DNA of 63,069 nucleotides, filler included, from Craspedostauros australis (Eukaryota), in the NCBI GenBank assembly GCA_030167865.1. It is 11 parts of 11 records of this genome, joined end to end, with 100 filler letters (N's around TTAATTAATTAA, not from the genome) between each part and the next. Parts side by side here need not be neighbours in the genome. Positions count along the whole stretch, not along the records: positions 55,834 to 59,690 come from JALAGF010000166.1; positions 59,791 to 61,916 come from JALAGF010000167.1; 9 more parts are not named here. One strand, written 5' to 3'. Numbering within the stretch: position 1 is the stretch's first letter; the number at the start of each line of letters is the position of its first letter. Positions 26,979 through 63,069 of the stretch are shown here, piece after piece. The position numbers and the translations under genes were made by a program. The notes under the pieces were generated by a model that saw nothing but the letters and a program-made list of their open reading frames with translations, was not told the origin of the DNA and ran no database searches.

Positions 26979-29900
26979 ATGGTCGGCTACACGACGCAAT
27001 CGACCGCGAGCAACGGCAGTGCCGTCGGAAAGTATGGCGACGACAGCGATAAAGACAGCAGCGATGGAGCGCTGAGCCAGTCAGTCAGCGGCATCTCCGA
27101 CGAGCAATCCGCCACTGGGAATTCAATCGGATGGAGCAGTTCCGCGTCTTCACAGCGCGGTGGTGCAAAGAAGCAACCGCGTTCGGCCAAGGAAACCGAA
27201 ATTGCAGCAGAGGAAGCCAGGGCAGTGTTTTGGTCCAAGATATGCATGCTCTCGTTGCTGCTCGTATCTGCCGGCATCGCCAGCGGCCTCGCTTTCCACT
27301 TCGCCAGGGAGGCGGAGACATCCGATTTCGAACTTCAGGTAAGCGCCGGTATCCTTCGGCCATCATTCCACGATGCTGCATGAATCCGTACGTCCATCTC
27401 CATCCTCTTTTTCATTCGTCACCATCGCACTTCACTCACTCACGATGCCGCACACTCGCATTCCATGACCGCGCTCCTGATGCGTTCTCCACTCTGCGAC
27501 ATCACGTCCCACCGCGATGTACCACCCTTGTACTCGCTCTCATACCCGTACTGACACTTATGTTTAGTTCCACGACTACGCCAACGAAATCGAGTATGTC
27601 ACGAAGCAAAACCTCCAGAATGCGCTGGATCTGATTGCAGGCCTTGGAGACTCCGTCACGTCTTACGATCTGAGCAAGACCAGCAACACGACGTTCCCCT
27701 TCGTGACGATCCCGCACTTCGAAATCCGGGGACGCAACTACAGACACGTCTCAGGTGCTCTCATGGTTGGATTCGCGCCAACCGTCAATCTCGACCAGCT
27801 CAGCCGATGGTCCGACTACTCGGTGAACAATCAAGGCTGGATCCAGGAGTCGCTTGACCTCGAGAATGACACGAAGAGCAGAGAAATGACCCCGACACCT
27901 ATCCATGAGTCTATCTTTGACGTGAAGAATGAAGGTCGTTTCGTCGATTCTCCTCCAAGGGAGACTCACTGTCCTCTGTGGCAGCAAAGCCCACCACCTC
28001 GGAGCGAGAACTTCATCAATTCGGATCTCTGCTCTTACGACGTCATAGCCGATGTCTTCGAGGCGTCCAAACAAACGCAGCGCCCGGCGTTGTCGGAGGT
28101 TTCGGATCCAACGACCATCTTTGGCCTCGAAGCCCTGGGTAAAGACAAAGACAAAATTGTCGTGATACACCCAAAGAGCATCCTTGTCGAGCCAGTCTTC
28201 GATCGATTTCACGATGCTGGCAAGCAAGTCGTGGGAATGCTCGTCGCCGTCATCCCCTGGGAGCTTTACTTCACGAACGTCATCCAGGAAAACTCCAAGG
28301 GTATCATCGCAGTGCTCGGAAGCTCCTGCGGCGATAGATTCTCCTTCCAGATTGATGGCCCCAACGTGTCTTATCTCGGCTTGGGCGACTTTCATTCCGA
28401 GGAGTACACCGACATGGGGCATGTGACCACCTTCACCGATGAGCAGCTGCTAGAGACGGAGCGGACCACCGTGGGCGGCAAGACCTGCATCTACACGCTG
28501 AATCTGTACCCATCGGAGGAGATGGAGAAATCGTATCGCACGGATACGCCAGTGTTCCTAGCTACTGCCGTCGCGGCCTTGTTCATCTTCACCATGGCCG
28601 TGTTCCTTGGGTACGACTTCTTGGTACAACGACGCCAAAGCAAGGTCCAAAATGCAGCCGTCAAATCCAACGCCATCGTTTCCTCCCTCTTCCCAGCAAA
28701 GGTCCGGGAACGGCTGATGCAGGAGAAGGAGCAGATGATGACATCCGAGCCGCACGATGGCGCCATCAACCTGCACACGCAAGGCAAGCTCCAGTCGAAG
28801 GGCCCCGTCGACCCCAACCGCCAGCTCTTTCATGAGACAAGCACCTCACCGACCCCGTCGTTGGATGGCGTGTTCTACGAAACCAAGCCCATCGCGGATC
28901 TCTTCCCCAACACAACAGTCCTCTTCTCCGACATCGTAAAATTCACGGCGTGGAGCTCCGTCCGTGAACCGACGCAGGTCTTCATGCTTCTTGAGACCGT
29001 GTACCGCGCATTCGACACGATCGCGAACAAGCGCGGAGTCTTCAAAGTCGAGACGATCGGGGACTGCTACGTCGCCGTGGCTGGACTTCCAGAACCAAGG
29101 GATGACCATGCCGTCATCATGGCACGCTTTGCCAACGATTGCATGAAGAAGATGAACGAGCTGTCGAAGATGCTCGAAGTGACGTTGGGACCTGACACCG
29201 GCGACCTCATGATGAGAATGGGCCTGCACTCGGGACCAGTCACAGCTGGAGTCCTCCGCGGCGACAAGTCCAGATTCCAGCTGTTCGGCGATACCGTCAA
29301 CACAGCAGCTCGAGTCGAGGCCACCGGTGCGCGCGGTCGCATCCACCTGTCGGAAAGCACAGCCAATCTGCTCATCGCTGCAGGTAAGAAGGCCTGGATC
29401 ATGCCGCGAGACGAGACCGTTGTTGCCAAAGGCAAGGGGGCCATTACAACTTTCTGGCTTCAATCCAAGGACACGGCGGAGAGAACCGGAGATTCCATCA
29501 CCGAAGCCACGAGCACGGCTGGCGCAGACCAACAATCAAACATCCCCGGTGCGTCGGGTCATGGCATGACGGCATGCCAACAGAGCAGCCCAGCTGCCGT
29601 TAGCCTTCCATCTACACCGCCCATCTTGAGACAGTCCCAGAGCGCGATGGACAAGCTCCCAAGATACCTCCAAAGCACACCCAAACAGCAACGTTTGGTT
29701 AAATGGAACGTCGACATCCTTGCCAGATTGTTGCTGGTGATGATCGAGAAGCGCCAGCCGACTTCCACGAATCGTTCCGTTGATGGGTCCCTCGCCAACA
29801 CGGAGGAGATGATCTGTCAAAGGAGCTACCCCTTGAATGAGGTCGTAGAGTTCGTGAGTCTCCCAGGATTTTCAAAGAACCGCAACTCGATCAAGTCTTT

Positions 29901-30671
29901 CAAGAACATCGCTCCGGCCGTCATCAGCGATGAGGTCCACGCTCAACTCGAACTCTACGTGGGAACAATCGCCTCGATGTACCGCAACAACTCCTTCCAC
30001 AACTTCGAGCACGCATCGCACGTCACTATGTCAGTCACGAAGCTTCTTTCCAGAATAGTGGCACCAGACATCGAAGAGGATGGCCAGGACCGCGCGCAAT
30101 GCCTCCATGACCACACATACGGCATCACGTCGGACCCACTCACACAGTTCGCTGTCGTCCTCTCAGCTCTCATCCATGATGTGGATCATGTTGGGGTCCC
30201 CAACTTCCTCCTCCTTGCTGAGAATGAACGCCTTGCGAAGCGGTTCAAGAACAAGAGCGTGGCAGAACAAAACTCCATCGAATTGGCATGGGACATACTC
30301 ATGCAACCGAAGTTTGACAGTCTGAGGAACTGCATCTACACGGACGCGCACGAGCTCAAGAGATTCCGGCAACTCATGGTCAACTCCGTTCTGGCCACGG
30401 ACATCTTTGACGCCGAGCTCAGCACGCTGCGAAAGAATCGGTGGGAGAGAGCCTTTAGCAGCAACAGCAGTACAGACTCCAGCAAAACCGTCGACACAAA
30501 CAGGAAGGCCACGATCGTCATTGAGCATCTCATCCAGGCCTCGGATGTAGCCCATACTATGCAGCATTGGCACGTCTACCAGAAATGGAACGAGCGGCTG
30601 TTCCACGAGATGATGCATGCGCATATCTCCGGACGATCCCAGAAAAATCCGTCCCAAAGCTGGTACGAAGG
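26979..30671 (+). CDS. Receptor-type guanylate/adenylate cyclase fused to a class I phosphodiesterase; exons 26979-27338 and 27568 to gap
   Basis: GT-AG intron 27339-27567 keeps the frame (ELQ|FHDY). Two TM helices flank an extracellular domain. Cyclase motifs VLFSDIVKFT, KVETIGDCY, RMGLHSGPV, LFGDTVNTAARVE. PDE motifs FHNFEHASHV, IHDVDHVGVPN, ATD, ASDVAH. Confidence 0.93.
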
Positions 30672-54276: not shown

Positions 54277-55733
54277 TCACTGGAATGTTCTCGATTTGTC
54301 AAGGTACGACTTCTCATGCTCTTGTTGCAAGTCGGACTTGATGTTCTTGGTGAAGCCATCGCTTGTATTGTGTTCGGATTTGACGAACATGATTTCGATG
54401 CTCTTGTTGGTTACCATGTTCCGCATGTAGTGATGGCGCACGTCGATGTGCCGCGATCGTTGAGATGTTGATGGGTTCTTGGCGATGAAGATTGCTCTGA
54501 TGTTGTTCACGCGGACCTTGATCGATGTCTTTACTGGAACGCCCACACTTTTAAGTAGCTGCATGACAAAGAAGATGTCTTTTGCCGCTTTGGAAAGGGC
54601 AACGTATTCTGCTTTGGATGAGCTGAGTGTGACAGCCTTCTGTGCCTTGGATTGCCAAAAGGATTGGCACCTTGCACAGGTATAGGATGAACCCTCCTAC
54701 GCTGATTCTCGTGTTCTTGTCTCCTGCATATTCGCTATTGTAGAAGAGCTCCATGTCCCAGCCATCGTCGTCTGAACATGCTGGATGGATCTTCTATCTA
54801 TTGTCCTTTGTATCAATCACATATTTGATGATTTGATACATCTCCTTCATTGCGGCCTTGGTGGGCCCGATCAATACCTTGGAGAGTTCCCTCACAGGGT
54901 TCGCGATGTCTGGTTGCGAGTGCTTGATGAGGAAGAGCAGCATACCGACGCCTCAGCGATATTCGGCATGTTCTTCTGGTCCGACCTTCTGCAGTCCGTT
55001 ATCTTCGGATGGCCGCACAATGATTTGACCCGGGGTTCCCGGTGTCGCGTAGCGTTGCATCGTCTCAACCTTGGCTCCAAACTCTTTGATGAGATGTTGG
55101 ATGAGGTGTGGTTGGCATAGCATTGCTCTGGTCTTGTCATAGTCCAGTTCGATATTGCACCTGAGGTAATCTCCAAGTCCTCGCTCGATTGTCACCTTGA
55201 ACTTGCTGCCTTGAATGTCCTTCAGGAATCTCTCCAATGCCTTGGAGTCCCCGCAGCAGAAGCAATTGTCCATGTAGATGGCCACGATCATACTTCCTTC
55301 GTTCGTCTTTTGATAGAACAGGCACGGATCTGCCGCGCTCTGTTCGAAGTTGATGTTCTTGAGGGTCGACACCAACATCTTAAACCACTGCCTGGCGCTC
55401 TGAACAAGTCTGTAGATTGGCTTGTGCAGGGTCAGGGCTTCGTCTGCTTGATGATCCATCCCGTTGGGACAGTTCATGTAGATCTCCTCGTCGAGGTCTC
55501 CACGTAGGAATGCCATTACAACATCAACGAGTGCGCAGTCCATCTGCTTGATCAGCATCATGACTCTGTAGGTCACGTCATGGATGACAGGTGAGTAGTG
55601 CTCTTGGAAGCCTACTCCTGCAACTTGTGAGTAGCCACATGCAACGAGTCTCGCTCGATGTGTGCCATCGCGTTTCAACTTGAATACCCACTTGCACTTG
55701 CAGCATCTGTGGCCTCGTGGGATGGCGTTTCGT
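54277..55733 (-). pseudogene. Ty1/copia reverse transcriptase-RNase H, frameshifted and decayed
   Basis: KCKWVFKLK, RARLVACGYSQ, DVVMAFLRGDLDEEIYM, IYRLVQSARQW, YMDN (normally YVDD), SEYAGD, SRHIDVRHH, SDGFTK, spread over several frames. Confidence 0.95.
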
Positions 55734-56197
55734 NNNNNNNNNNNNNNNNNNNNNNNNNNNNNNNNNNNNNNNNNNNNTTAATTAATTAANNNNNNNNNNN
55801 NNNNNNNNNNNNNNNNNNNNNNNNNNNNNNNNNAATGGATTTCATGCAGTCCTCGTACCCGGAGCGTATCACCACGGAATAAACATGAATCCGATCAAAA
55901 TGGTAGCAAGCACACCTACCATACGTACAAGCAGTATTCTGCGAGCGGTCTGCATACGATAATACGAGCTATGCGGACGGAGGAGATTGGTAATGTACGT
56001 ATGTATGTGCTTCTGTGAAGATGCTATAACATGTATCATATCATGGAGTAGATCGTTCATTCTTCAATCCTTGAGCTTCGATGGTATCCCTCATCCCATG
56101 GTCAAGGATTGTGACACAGCCTGGTGAGAGACCACCATCTGCCTTCATTGCTGCAGCAGGAGCTGGATGCACGAGTATCCATACTTGTTGAGTGGTC

Positions 56198-59100
56198 TCA
56201 TTTGGAGCTCTTCGGCGACTTGCTTGATTTGGGTGACTTGGGAGACTTCGTCTTGCTCTCCTTTGATGACTTTTTCGATTTGTATGATTTCGCCCCCTTG
56301 GTGCTGCGCATGTAAGATGGTTGGGAGGAAGGGAAGGACGACGGCGCGGATGACGGTGTGGATGACGGTGTGAACGACGGCGTGGATGACGGTGTGAACG
56401 ACGGCGTGGATGACGGCATCTTCGAGTTACCGTTGCAGAATTCCAGTGAACCCATGAAGTACACAAAGAGACCATCGCAGACAGGAGGAGGATAATCACC
56501 GACAACATCGCTCGCCCTTCCTGTAAAGATAGTGAATGGGCAATTGTTGCAATCAATCCAGTCTGGAGGGATGGGAATGATGCTGTCCGAGAATTGCCTC
56601 CCCGTGCTCGTTCGTGTATCGATCCGGATGGAGATCACGTCGTCGCTTTCGGACACAGCCAAAGGTTGATCGAATGAAATCACGTCTGTGAATTCACCAT
56701 CACCTCTGGCCTCGATCGTTCCCGATGCAAGTTCTGTCCAATTCCCGGGTGCATCCCACGTACTTGGGCGATAGAAGATTGTGAAAGTTTGGTTCCCCGT
56801 CGATGGCAGGACAAGCCTCATGCCTGTGATGTCGACACTATCCAGAATCTGAATGTCGTGTCGCACTGAAGCGACCGTGTCAGCGAAGAATGATCTTGGG
56901 AGACCTGCTGTTTTTGCGTCGCGGCAGGTGTCTGTTGGTGCCTGTGTGGGGCCTGCGGATGGTTGGATTGATGGCGATGTTGTCGTAGTGGGGGAAGCAG
57001 ATCCGGTTGGCATCTCGGTGCTCAAATCCGGACAGAATTCGAGGGCGCCGTAAAAGACGGGGAACCCATTGCGGAAATTGGGCGGGTTGTTTCCAACTTC
57101 GAGGCTACCTTGTCCGGTGAATACCTCGAATGGGCAGTCTGGGCACTCGAAGAAGCTCTCTGGGATCACAAACGGAGATGATGAGTACAAATTCCTCAAC
57201 CTGTCGGCCGTGTCAATGCGGAAGGATACAATGTCATCCTCCGCAGACACCACCACTGGCTGATCAAATATGAGGGAGGGGGAGAAGCCAGACGAATCCT
57301 TTCCCCCGTTGTTTCCTGATGCAATCTGAGTCCAGTTGCCATCGGCATCCCAGGTGCTTGGNCGGAAGAAGATCGTGTATGGCATGTTGGTGAATTCAGC
57401 AGCCACGGAGACCTTGATGGCGGTGAGTTCGACGCTGTCCAGTATGCGAACATCGAATCTGAATGACTCAGTGCGCTCAGCTGAGCGAGGTTCGCTGGGC
57501 GTTGTGAACTCCCACGTGCCGCAAAATTCGGTTGGGGCAGACGAGGGGGTTATACTCGGAACATTCGATGGGAGTGATGACATTGATGGTGCCACAGAAA
57601 CGGATGGTGTCGCGGTTGGTGATCGACTGCGGTCCAGTTTCACGCTCACCGTCGCACACATGGGTGTGGTCGAGTCATCATCGATGTTGGATACCGAAAT
57701 GACGATCCCATCCAGCAAAGACGACTGGGCATCAATTCTGTACAATGGTTGTGTCATGTCCAGGATGGCCTCCAGATGAGAGAATCGCGTCTCGGTGGTG
57801 CCGTGGTCTTGTGCCCTTGTCACGAGGACCTGATCCCTGCCCAGCGGAGAATCGGCGTTGAAGCCAATGGCTCTGTTGAAGGCGATGTAGTAGTTCAATT
57901 CACTCTCAGGATCGTCAATTCGGATGATGACGTCGAAGCTGGTGTCAGCGGGGTCATAATCGACCACTCCGCAGAGCCTTCCCTCGAAGTCGATGTCTCG
58001 ACCTCCGGTGAGCAATGTGGTCTGATCGGAGTACCACCCCATCACCCAGCTCTTGGCGCCTATGTGTGGTGGAGGGGCAGGCGCATGAGTAATGATATTG
58101 AAGGGGTAGGTTTGCAGCATGAGCATGAGGGTGTGAAATGATTTGGCGCGGACGTAAAGAACGAAACGATGGAGAAGGTAACGATTGGTGAGGCAGTGTA
58201 CGTAGAGTGTCGCATTGTATCACATCGCGTGCGATGAGGTGACAAGACTCCTCCTGGACCGGAATCATCTGGGTCCTTGCTCTCCACAAAGCAACGGCGC
58301 CATAGCACTTACCGTTGTATCCCACCTTATCGGTCAGCGATTCATTAAAAAATCGACTAACAACCATTACGCCCATCGCGCCGCTGCGGCATGATAGTGG
58401 ATGTTGGGGTTGGAATCCATCGGCCGGAAAATATCAGAAAACGAGGAAGAGGATCCACGAAGACTGGGGTTAGATGGGCTTCGAACGAGAAACAGGGTCC
58501 CTGTCATGTGATGAGGACCAGAACATGGCAGACGTGTCCAATGTGCTCTCTCCGAAGTTCGATTGTGTCCGTTCTTGTGTCCGATCGTCCATCCGTCTAC
58601 AATGATTGATGCAGAATGTCACAGATCGTCTCCAACCTCTCTCTCTCTCTCTCTGTTGGCACATTGGCTGCGCTTACCTGAAATCTTCGTACTCTACCCC
58701 GTCCCGATTGGAATGGCCAAGCCCAAAGTTGTGACCGAGTTCGTGGACGATGATGTAAGGGTTGGCTGCCCAGTGCGTGTCTGGATAGTTTCTGATACCG
58801 TTGTACATGCTGATCTTTTGATCGAAATAAGCGTACGCTGTGAATCAGTGGTGTGTCGGTTGCATTGGTGCGCGCATTGATCATCGGGAGAGTTTGATTC
58901 GCACGGAAGAAAGATGGTATTGCACGGTGGAGTGAGATGGGTTGGATAGGAGTATGAGCACGGGTAGAGCTCATCACGATACCAGTGCGAAATGTTGATG
59001 AGGAAGACACAAGTTGTGTGGTCCTTGTCAGCACTTACCGGTCCAGTCAGTGTCAGTGTCAATGCCAATGTCCAGCCCCAACCCGAACGGGACCAGGATC

Positions 59101-59964
59101 AAGAAGAAATCAAAGTCATCATAGATCTTGACCTCCTGCTTCAGATATTGCGAGATGAGATTATCAACTCTTCTTGCCTCGAGAGTGGTGGGATCAACAT
59201 CAGGTGAATACTCAAGTGTCAGAATCCCATCATCTGTCCCATTCGTCGGCATGGTGGAGAGCCTCAGCTTGTCAAAAGACATGGCCGCGAACTGGTCGGT
59301 GAAGTTGGGTTGAGCGCCGAAGATCTCGTCTTTGATGAGGGATTTGGGAACTGTGTAGTCGGTTTGGAAGACGACCTGAATGAAGAGGAACTTCTTGTCG
59401 CCAGAACCACGGACATCAGGAGTGGTCAGAGAACGACCATGTCCATGGCCATCGCTTTGTTCGCTTCGTTGATGATGCTCGATCGTCATGTCATCGATGA
59501 TCTTCAAGTCCGGCAGCTTCAAGGAGAAGTCGGTGACATCGATGATGACATTCTCCAGAAACAACGTGGACTTGGAAGAGGGAGTTGGCCATACATGTTT
59601 GTCGGCGGCCCATTCCGGCGTCAGCCCTTCGATGGCCATATGCACAGGCCCATGTGCTTCCTCATCGGAGCCTTGGAGCATGCAAGATAANNNNNNNNNN
59701 NNNNNNNNNNNNNNNNNNNNNNNNNNNNNNNNNNTTAATTAATTAANNNNNNNNNNNNNNNNNNNNNNNNNNNNNNNNNNNNNNNNNNNNTTGGAGCAGC
59801 CGCAGACGTTGTGGATGCATCATGTTCAGTTGCGGTTCCCGATCCTGCTGCTTGACATCACCAGCACCATCATCGGCACGAACAGTAGAATCGACAAAGA
59901 CAGAACTGGGGATCACAACTGCCACGCAGATGCGAGCGATGGAAAGAATCCTCATGATTTGCAT
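56198..59964 (-). CDS. Secreted metzincin metalloprotease (peptidase M11/gametolysin-like); exons 59964-59791 (gap) 59690-59039, 58837-58678, 58383-58313, 58059-56198
   Basis: Three GT-AG introns splice in frame to give AYAYF...IIVHELGHNFGLGHS...YEDFSGAMG...YNGAKSWVMGWY. The signal-peptide exon beyond the gap is assumed to belong to this gene. Confidence 0.85.
56338..56418 (-). repeat. Coding 12-nt tandem repeat (PSST/PSFT)
   Basis: GACGGTGTGGAT / GACGGTGTGAAC units. Confidence 0.9.
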
Positions 59965-60290: not shown

Positions 60291-61031
60291 TGGTGGCAGG
60301 AAGGAGTCTTGGATACGTTTGTTGTGGATTGAAACACGAGTGGTGTCATGCTCATCATCGCTGTCATCGTCATCGTCATCGCCACAGAACATGAGAAACG
60401 CCTCTGATTTCCACCGAAGAAGTCATCGTGGATTCTTCACATCGTGGATCTGCCCATCGGAGTCGTTCGATGACATCCAACGGCCGAAGAAGTGTATCGA
60501 TCGGAGTATAATAATAGTATCGTGGTTGACTCCCCCCAAGACCATCACAGAGGGATGTGCCTACTCGTATTACACGATCAATGGTGTCACATGAAGAGGC
60601 ACAACTGCACAGCGTGGCCAAGTTGGGCATCATCGAAGGTTGTATCGTGCGAGCGAGCGAGCAAGCCAGCTTCGGATCATGATGTGGCTGTCCACGGTCG
60701 TACCATGCCATACTATACCATACCGAACCACACCACACCACACCATACACCGTGGTGGAACTGCGCAAGTCCATGCAGGCGTGTTGACTGACGACACGTT
60801 GCTTCGTGATCAATGCACAGGATCATGAAATGGAGGACATCAANNNNNNNNNNNNNNNNNNNNNNNNNNNNNNNNNNNNNNNNNNNNNNNNNNNNNNNNA
60901 CTCTGCCTGCTCTATCAGCTCTACCTGCTCCACTCGTACGATTATACCGACCACCAACAGAAACAATCAGCAACAACAGCAACAATCATCATCAGTAACA
61001 ATCAGCAACAATCGGAAACGACAAGAAAAGG

Positions 61032-61916
61032 ATGAACCACAACATGGATGCTGTCGCCAACACCAATACCAACAGCGATCATGATCCAGACTTCAAGACT
61101 TTCTGGAAACAACTCCATCGAAAATTGTGGGTTCCGAAGACTGCATTCAATATACAGAGTCATTCAAGACAGCAGATCGACTGCTACAGTGTCACACCCA
61201 AGCGGATGGAATACTGGGACATGGCCATCGAAGCAGGATTCACCGTCGCTGACTTGGAATCGATGCAGTGGTGGCACAAGCACGTTGCTTTATCATCTCG
61301 TGTTCTACTGAGCAAATCGCTTTTTCAGAGAAGCGGATGGATGGGTATTGGATCCCTGTATCTGAAATTCGGCAGCAATGACCAATTCGGAGAAGAAGAC
61401 AAGCAAGCCATTCGCTTTGTACTTCGATTGGCTGCCAAACGCCCAGCCAAATCTATATTCGGCGAAGGCATCTGCTTGCCTCCATGCTTCGTGAAGATAA
61501 AACAGCTCCATGATATCCCTCTTGTGACACATCGTGTGCATTTTGATTCATGTGATCTTGTTGATTGTGACAAGCTCATGTTCAACATCTCCCAAAACTC
61601 CAAATACGTTTCGTTTTGTTTCTGCAAGCTCACCAATGGGGGCGCTGATTTGTGCAGATGGCTGTCTCCAAACAATTGCAGTGTCACCGAAGTATTCTTT
61701 TGGGACACCCGTATCACTTGCGATAGCTTGGCAAAGCTATTCCAGTCAAACAAGCGCATCAACAAGCTCAACATCAATTGGTCTCGGCTCTCCGACACTC
61801 AACAAATCCACTCACAACAAGAAATCGACCAGATCATCAAACTCCTTTCAGATGCATCACACCTGAACAAGCTCGAGGTTTCCTGTACTTGGGACATGTC
61901 ATCGCAACAAGAGGGG
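61032..61916 (+). CDS. Hypothetical protein, possibly RNI-like leucine-rich repeat, truncated by gap
   Basis: 295-codon open frame with weak LRR-like periodicity (LFQSNKRINKLNIN, HLNKLEVS). Confidence 0.5.
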
Positions 61917-62146: not shown

Positions 62147-63069
62147 ATGTCTGACGATGAAGATATCGCCGCCCTTGTCATCGACAACGGTTCCGGAATG
62201 TGCAAAGGTAAGGCGTCATCGAGCAGCACATCGCATGGCATCACAATGGATTGTATCGTTTTGAATTGGGTTGGATTCAAACACGGCAATGACAACAGCA
62301 ACAATGATCGGACGATCGATCGATCGACCGCCACGGTTGCGATCTTCTTGATCGGTGGCATTGGCGGCATTGCTGAAATGAGACGCGAAGGATCATCGAT
62401 GGTCAGCATGCGCATGGTGGATGCGCTGGCGGAGTGTGCACGCAGGGGTACTCTGTCATAACATCGTCGTACCATCGCCAGCCATCATGTGTCTAACTCC
62501 AATTCCACTTTCTTGGTCCACCACACGACAACCACACAACAGCCGGATTCGCTGGAGATGACGCCCCACGCTCCGTCTTCCCATCCCTCATCGGACGTGC
62601 CCGCCAGCCAGGTATCATGGTTGGTATGGAGCAGCGTGACGCATACGTCGGTGACGAGGCACAGGCCAAGCGTGGTGTCCTCACACTGAAGTACCCAATC
62701 GAGCACGGTATCGTCACCAACTGGGACGATATGGAGAAGATCTGGCATCACACCTTCTACAACGAGCTCCGTGTCGCCCCAGAGGCCCACCCAGTCCTGC
62801 TCACCGAGGCCCCACAGAACCCCAAGGCCAACCGCGAGCGTATGACCCAGATCATGTTCGAGACCTTCAACGTCCCGGCCATGTACGTCAACATCCAAGC
62901 CGTCCTCTCCCTGTACGCCTCCGGACGTACCACCGGATGCGTGCTGGACTCCGGTGATGGTGTGACACACACCGTCCCAATCTATGAGGGATACGCTCTT
63001 CCACACGCCGTCATCCGTCTCGATTTGGCCGGACGTGACCTGACCGAGTACCTGATGAAGATCCTCACA
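62147..63069 (+). CDS. ACT: Actin, 5' part; exons 62147-62207 and 62543 to window end
   Basis: [30 protein letters not shown]...[11 protein letters not shown]...[18 protein letters not shown] intron 62208-62542. Confidence 0.98.

Follow-up and report, generated by a model that had tools for sequence, protein, structure and literature searches.

The protease gene on the minus strand at positions 56198–59690 of the analysed stretch of the Craspedostauros australis genome (assembly GCA_030167865.1; 63,069 nucleotides (nt), hereafter the window) raises the question whether its product works on the diatom's own silica wall or is held there to act on something else. The first-pass annotation, made from the sequence alone, had described a secreted M11-like metalloprotease with a silaffin-like lysine tail. 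We found that the gene belongs to a family of at least 18 close copies, that its tail is likely an address tag, and that diversifying selection has likely, although not provenly, acted on the surroundings of the active site and on loops of the accessory domains. We tentatively favour, somewhat short of an even chance, the explanation that these copies form a wall-held M11 zymogen family, diversified by selection for binding and cleaving extracellular targets that change over time and are most likely foreign proteins.

Four exons, separated by GT-AG introns of 201, 294 and 253 nt, form a single open frame of 914 residues, which starts at the edge of an assembly gap. A DNA search of the same genome returned 17 other near-full copies with 86–93% identity, introns included, each on a separate contig; 40 of the 43 candidates were scored, and the copy number is at least 18. 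Some of the copies could be alleles. A further ring of family members lies at ~70% identity, and a Pfam search of the genome gave 17 M11 matches among 26 candidates. The exon lengths of 160 and 71 nt and the same three introns recur in all 17 sister copies, which supports the exon model, with the zinc motif and the Met-turn on two small exons (160 and 71 nt, respectively) as had been proposed. Frames of 883–1190 residues are open in 15 sister copies; L033 breaks at an N gap, and L032 (G000:C577), whose first coding exon contains a short inverted duplication, breaks early and has lost the zinc motif. In sequencing run X1 (RNA only by guess; 9% of words), contigs on 55834–59690 reached only from 55834 to ~57250 and contained no splice joints; they include a piece over the tail, and many of their letters differ from the gene sequence. 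The features of the locus are as follows.

59039–59690, minus strand: first visible coding exon, with the propeptide and the N-terminal half of the M11 domain, its 5' end cut by the gap; open frame, GT donor at 59038, 85–91% protein identity to sister copies.
59427–59435, minus strand: RSL of GRSL, the likely zymogen-processing site preceding the catalytic domain.
58838–59038, minus strand: GT-AG intron of 201 nt.
58678–58837, minus strand: 160-nt exon with the AYAY strand and HELGHNFGLGH (58745–58713); match to Pfam PF05548.
58384–58677, minus strand: GT-AG intron of 294 nt.
58313–58383, minus strand: 71-nt exon with the Met-turn (Met at 58376–58374), then a hypervariable loop.
58060–58312, minus strand: GT-AG intron of 253 nt.
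56198–58059, minus strand: last exon, with the end of the M11 region, the Pro/Ser/Thr linkers, two beta-sandwich domains, the tail and the stop codon.
57035–57532, minus strand: beta-sandwich domain 1, with three hypervariable loops; ~40% identity to domain 2.
56426–56932, minus strand: beta-sandwich domain 2, predicted PHR-like jelly-roll fold; doubled in four sister copies.
56201–56302, minus strand: Lys/Ser tail of 34 residues, with five overlapping pentalysine-pattern matches.
59691–59790, no strand: assembly gap of unknown size, which judging from the sister copies probably conceals the true signal-peptide exon and first intron (~0.4 kb or more).
59791–59964, minus strand: piece earlier taken as the N-terminus; comparisons with sister copies and repeats place it in another repeat family, and it is unsupported as part of the gene.

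Judged by its sequence, the protease belongs to M11 by each feature testable here. The Peptidase_M11 profile (PF05548), proposed earlier as a check, was matched by the zinc-motif exon alone with 27.4 bits, above the cut-off of 21. The motif has the metzincin form HExxHxxGxxH and is intact in 11 of the 18 close copies, and the Met-turn SGAMG aligns with SGMMG of other M11 proteins, its Met being invariant in alignment A1. The spliced N-terminal 436 residues matched 15 M11 relatives, which are distant proteins and not orthologues, with E values from 2e-32 to 2e-14 (small database). The predicted structure of one relative, P0001, used as a stand-in for the M11 domain studied here, matched metzincins, with InhA2 (M6) and the glycopeptidase OgpA at the top. 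Among 8000 scored candidates, a search with the protein of the last exon retrieved only P0001, aligned over 28% of its length at 34% identity, and one match to a linker, and no relatives were found for the first 143 residues of that exon. The GRSL noted earlier before the catalytic region is indeed present and is retained in all 16 open models; RRL-, RQL- or RKL-type motifs stand in the equivalent pre-catalytic stretch of seven of the eight other M11 proteins checked. Secretion as a zymogen is likely. Expansions of M11 are known in diatoms, with 17, 50 and 33 genes in three Pseudo-nitzschia species (PMC11499653) and others reported in PMC8613185.

The last 34 residues contain the 13 Lys counted earlier, together with 12 Ser and 10 overlapping KxxK motifs, and match the published pentalysine pattern K..K..K.{1,2}K..K five times (work of Poulsen 2013, via 10.1101/2021.09.18.460806, PMC9650480 and PMC5501833). 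This is the sole site with the pattern in the six frames of the window, and it did not arise in any of 10,000 shuffled versions of the protein. Of the 16 open models, 14 retain the pattern; the two exceptions, L027 and L028, have other ends. Sixteen further, more distant loci of the family were also read. In nine of them the reading extended to the C-terminus, five ran off the contig and two had no C-terminal match. Two of the nine ends carry the pentalysine pattern, two are otherwise Lys-rich, and five end in a hydrophobic segment that resembles, by eye, a glycosylphosphatidylinositol signal or a membrane anchor. Nearly identical genes can differ in this respect: L079, with a hydrophobic end, is 91.3% identical over 4207 nt to L081, with a lysine tail, and L091 is 93.1% identical to L081 over 2086 nt. 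Since the lysine tail occupies the slot of an anchor, we infer that it is likely an address tag. By analogy with silaffin pentalysine clusters, it may be modified with polyamines and bind silica; in three centric diatoms, 29% of the proteins associated with silica contain the pattern, as opposed to 1.5% of the background (10.1101/2021.09.18.460806), and pentalysine-type peptides suffice to bring green fluorescent protein (GFP) to the frustule (10.1101/2021.09.18.460806, PMC9650480).

The first-pass reading of an M11-type protease with a silaffin-like localisation tag is strengthened by this swap of ends between copies of 91–93% identity. It is weakened by the 15 M11 relatives from other organisms, where the lysine-cluster end is absent (0–2 KxxK in the last 60 residues), by the two open models with replaced tails, and by an N-terminus and RXL site that had been mis-joined, as described below. 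Runs of the form KSxKSxKSxK are common in this genome (141 matches, 4 in a reversed control); in eight of ten unrelated loci the protein looks secreted by eye, and the run is internal and often directly behind RxL. Loci L049, L061, L063, L064, L070 and L078 belong to a second expanded, secreted-looking family in which RxL is followed by a KSxK run and then by many Cys-rich GxxAC repeats, resembling a motif cluster of silica-associated proteins (10.1101/2021.09.18.460806).

Between the M11 region and the tail lie two related domains of 165 residues, set on the Pro/Ser/Thr linkers that had been predicted and that are present in the last exon; a third domain occurs in four of the 16 open models. 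Neither these domains nor the gene family had been noted in the first-pass annotation. No Pfam family was matched by the beta domain among 19 members at an E-value threshold of 1. Domain 2 was predicted as a jelly-roll sandwich with a pLDDT of 90.8, and its nearest folds are PHR domains (3no8: Z 11.0, root-mean-square deviation 3.1 Å, 141 residues aligned, 10% sequence identity), followed by a Cwp84 entry with a lectin-like domain (Z 9.3) and carbohydrate-binding modules (CBM32; Z 5–6). A likeness to birnavirus capsids in Foldseek was put aside at TM-scores of ~0.2. A profile search found the module in 29 proteins, mostly in tandem. Protease domains stand beside it in several of the 28 module proteins scanned (M6 in six, trypsin in one, S8 in one), so that protease plus beta-sandwich module is a recurrent architecture. 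In a sister subfamily, L080 (G000:C4675) carries at least five beta-sandwich repeats up to the end of its contig and has HGLGH in place of HELGH.

The copies differ from each other in an uneven manner. Among 209 informative sites, incompatibility increased with distance (0.31 within 10 nt, 0.53 by 31–100 nt; p = 0.001), a rise that indicates short-tract exchange among copies and makes tree-based tests unsafe. Codon analyses covered 578 codons of 16 of the 18 copies, with the indel loops 74–84 and 203–215, the linkers, domain 2 and the tail left out. A tree-free codon mixture placed 8% of sites at an omega near 10, with a doubled log-likelihood difference of 167 (86–89 with rate variation). At least five different amino acids were found at 26 of the 578 codons. 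Nulls matched to the synonymous level with mild rate variation reached maxima of 13, 18 and 24 such codons (0/200 runs each; 0/600), and strong rate variation gave 26 in 63 and 139 of 200 runs; 26 such codons together with the flat synonymous variation observed were reached in none of 1000 null runs. The introns vary little in rate from window to window. In windows picked after the data had been seen, diversity at second codon positions was 0.18–0.32 in the patches, 0.09–0.11 in introns and 0.012 in the conserved stretch 295–380. The variable sites cluster at residues 222–283 (the upper-rim strand, the first part of the zinc helix and the loop that follows the Met-turn) and at 385, and in three loops of domain 1 (473–488, 583–596 and 626–629); the corresponding loops of domain 2 vary too, by eye. 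These M11 sites were assigned to the surroundings of the cleft from where they lie in the sequence, with the AYAY strand, the zinc helix and the Met-turn as landmarks, and from the general anatomy of metzincins. The stretch 301–370 has a dN/dS (ratio of nonsynonymous to synonymous substitution rates) of 0.07–0.22, and the overall value is 0.72.

Seven of the 18 close copies (L023, L024, L025, L028, L030, L032 and L033) lack one or more zinc ligands, the sets of residues differing between them. The sister subfamily has altered motifs as well: L080 is without the catalytic Glu and L092 without the whole motif. In the five ligand-less copies with open frames, pN/pS (the ratio of nonsynonymous to synonymous differences per site) of the core is 0.50, in comparison to 0.38 in intact copies. 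Such copies may have a binding or decoy role.

The N-terminus has to be revised. A signal peptide followed by RLRLLQ had been joined to the gene across the gap, and this connection is not supported: the piece 59791–59964 finds no counterpart in the flanking DNA retrieved for the 17 sister copies. In 14 of these a 93-nt signal-peptide exon is found instead, with an ATG 393–454 nt before the gap-equivalent point; it encodes a hydrophobic 31-residue stretch (judged by eye, no signal-peptide predictor) and is followed by an intron and a C..C propeptide motif, also present in other M11 proteins. The exon was not found in the other three sister copies, two of which have N gaps there. The true 5' end of the gene is probably inside the gap. 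The piece on the far side belongs to a repeat family with 43 matches, in which the frame stops directly after the equivalent of RLRLL in six of the seven other copies read; where a match to the protease model follows (five of seven), it is beta-domain sequence and not M11. The repeat unit on contig C167, 59791–60843, has at least 43 matches; its distal 540 nt occur on more than 30 contigs, and in several copies its proximal part precedes beta-sandwich-coding DNA without M11.

The assembly itself shows irregularities at this point. Contig numbers jump along the window (C162, C164, C166, C167, C168), and C165 shares its start base with C166 and carries a sister copy; the skipped numbers and the common start suggest that repeats have caused branching in the assembly and that the joins around this point are uncertain. 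Neither another 7.4 kb of C165 nor the initial 3 kb of C163 matched the window, and so they do not resolve the gap. The mis-join is a warning for gene models of this assembly.

The surroundings of the copies were also inspected. Similarity between copies ends raggedly, ~0.4–1.7 kb upstream of the gap-equivalent point and 0.2–2 kb behind the stop codon, which speaks against a transposon cargo with fixed termini; there was no separate search for terminal repeats or target-site duplications. A copia-type retroelement remnant (54277–55733, minus strand; RVT_2 with E 1.8e-36, then, by eye, a broken RNase-H-like frame) faces the 3' end of the protease gene across a gap, and DNA like that flanking the retroelement lies near four other copies. 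An uninformative search of the neighbouring retroelement against phage records gave no match.

Under the explanation that we tentatively favour, the protein would be secreted, activated by cleavage at GRSL and tethered by its lysine tail in the diatom cell wall. The beta-sandwich loops, by binding, and the cleft, both differing from copy to copy, would reach the targets, and ligand-less copies would bind without cutting. The targets would most likely be foreign, namely proteins of attaching microbes, parasites or viruses; differences from copy to copy at the cleft and loops suit shifting, probably foreign, targets more than an invariant step in wall building. Several points weigh against this explanation. 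Null data with strong block-wise rate variation gave likelihood-ratio values of 4.7–69.6 in seven runs, compared with 88.9 observed, and the test is therefore not relied on alone. The null simulations used one tree and left out the import of patches from more distant paralogues, and the diversity windows were chosen in hindsight. In intact-motif copies the pairwise pN/pS over residues 216–294 is only 0.78, and the core value of 0.38 reflects no more than moderate constraint. As to the tail, the Lys-rich regions of the cingulin CinW2 are sufficient alone and dispensable for wall targeting in a larger fragment, and the C-terminal half of CinW2, with two Lys-rich regions, is not wall-targeted (PMC9650480); all targeting data for the pentalysine pattern consulted here come from centric diatoms. 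A bolder form of the same idea is an immune-like surface repertoire, in which short gene-conversion tracts would reshuffle the substrate cleft and the antibody-like loops of the PHR fold in dozens of M11 proteases and dead decoys, and a swappable C-terminal tag, either a hydrophobic anchor or a silaffin-type lysine cluster, would sort the copies to the plasma membrane or the glass wall, there to cleave or capture proteins from parasites, viruses or fouling bacteria; this more elaborate proposal we consider unlikely.

The functions proposed in the first-pass annotation are rather unlikely. In that case the protease, anchored in the frustule or girdle, would process the diatom's own wall proteins or loosen the wall at division or gametogenesis, and the variation would reflect diverse self substrates or surfaces of mating partners. 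The tail fits the pentalysine pattern; secreted proteases of Thalassiosira pseudonana are co-regulated with wall genes and were proposed as RXL-processing enzymes (PMC5501833); in Pseudo-nitzschia multistriata an 'autolysin' gene is up at 1 h of mating (PMC8769554), and two peptidases with Ka:Ks >1 are among the sex-regulated genes (PMC5485032). However, absence of the tail from 15 M11 relatives means that it is not a conserved wall-building part, and a housekeeping role in wall processing would call for a cleft that stays the same between copies; the cleft region instead ranks with the parts that vary most, and seven of 18 copies lack zinc ligands. The tail could alternatively be an address tag for something other than silica (anionic mucilage, the adhesive matrix or secretory routing), with enzymes that remodel or digest that matrix. 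The frequency of KSxKSxKSxK runs and the secreted look of most of the unrelated loci agree with this, as do the likeness of the beta-sandwich to the lectin-like and carbohydrate-binding folds of Cwp84 and CBM32 and the match of the P0001 model to OgpA, a mucin glycopeptidase; we nevertheless regard it as improbable, given that proteins associated with silica show a strong enrichment of the exact pentalysine pattern and that such peptides bring GFP to the frustule. Finally, the family could be the outcome of birth and death, with passive copying in repeat-rich DNA, redundant copies, and variation and ligand loss through relaxed selection and gene conversion from older paralogues. The overall dN/dS of 0.72, the ragged ends of the copied stretches, the adjoining copia remnant with similar flanks near four other copies, the broken frame of L032 and the commonness of M11 expansions in diatoms (PMC11499653, PMC8613185) are all compatible with such a process. 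Against it stand the long open frames in 15 of 17 sister copies, the low dN/dS at 301–370, the restriction of extreme amino-acid variation to a few patches in which synonymous variation is not raised to match, and zinc-ligand loss with differing residue sets that extends to the sister subfamily (L080, L092); this is the explanation to which we give the least credence.

Among the literature found, there was no report of a lysine-tailed M11 protease or of selection in diatom M11 genes; subscription papers were mostly outside the search, and the supplements of 10.1101/2021.09.18.460806 may list M11 proteins. The available supplements of PMC5501833 contained no entry 'M11' or 'gametolysin'. For tail swapping, diversification of the cleft and dead copies in M11 we found no prior report; the diatom M11 expansions as such are already known and, although published, unexplained. 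Variation concentrated at the cleft and loops, with zinc ligands lost more than once, suggests that the family serves recognition at the surface of the diatom, in defence or mate recognition, which is a poorly known area. Near-identical enzymes with either a silaffin-type lysine tag or a hydrophobic, anchor-like end are a natural experiment, and make the addressing of folded enzymes to biosilica by a tag directly testable.

Elsewhere in the window, on the plus strand, an actin gene with an early intron (62148–63069; Pfam E 1.7e-67) is cut by the window end, and a guanylate cyclase-phosphodiesterase fusion (27568–30671) is cut by a gap. An open frame of ~300 residues (60999–61916, plus strand) has no Pfam match and, by eye, a leucine-rich-repeat-like periodicity.

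In comparison with known systems, the protein shares with M11 (gametolysin) relatives, among them P0001 of Fragilaria crotonensis and P0009 and P0013 of Chaetoceros tenuissimus, the C..C propeptide motif (as read in its sister copies), a basic RxL-type site, the AYAY strand, HExxHxxGxxH, the Met-turn, the AKSW motif and C-terminal accessory modules on Pro/Ser/Thr linkers. It differs from them in the pentalysine tail that alternates with a hydrophobic end, in belonging to a very young subfamily, in the hypervariable cleft region and in the ligand-less copies. The accessory domains resemble PHR and lectin-like jelly-rolls (PDB 3no8 and 3gbw; Cwp84, 4ci7) in fold, whereas the domain found here has no Pfam match. 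The tail is pentalysine-matching and Ser-rich like silaffins and cingulins, yet the protein is not a silaffin: those are largely disordered, low-complexity structural proteins with no enzyme domain, whereas here the tag makes up 34 of more than 914 residues of a multi-domain enzyme, with an M11 domain and two well-folded beta-sandwiches. In trypanosomatids, GP63 is a diversifying family of surface proteases with inactive members. Expansions of M36 proteases are described in chytrids (PMC9926174). Like both of these, the present family has many copies of recent origin within repeat-rich DNA, substrate-binding surfaces that vary, and dead paralogues; GP63 and chytrid M36 are, however, other protease families and occur in parasites, whereas the present family belongs to a diatom and has, as its anchor, a lysine tag in some members and a hydrophobic end in others.

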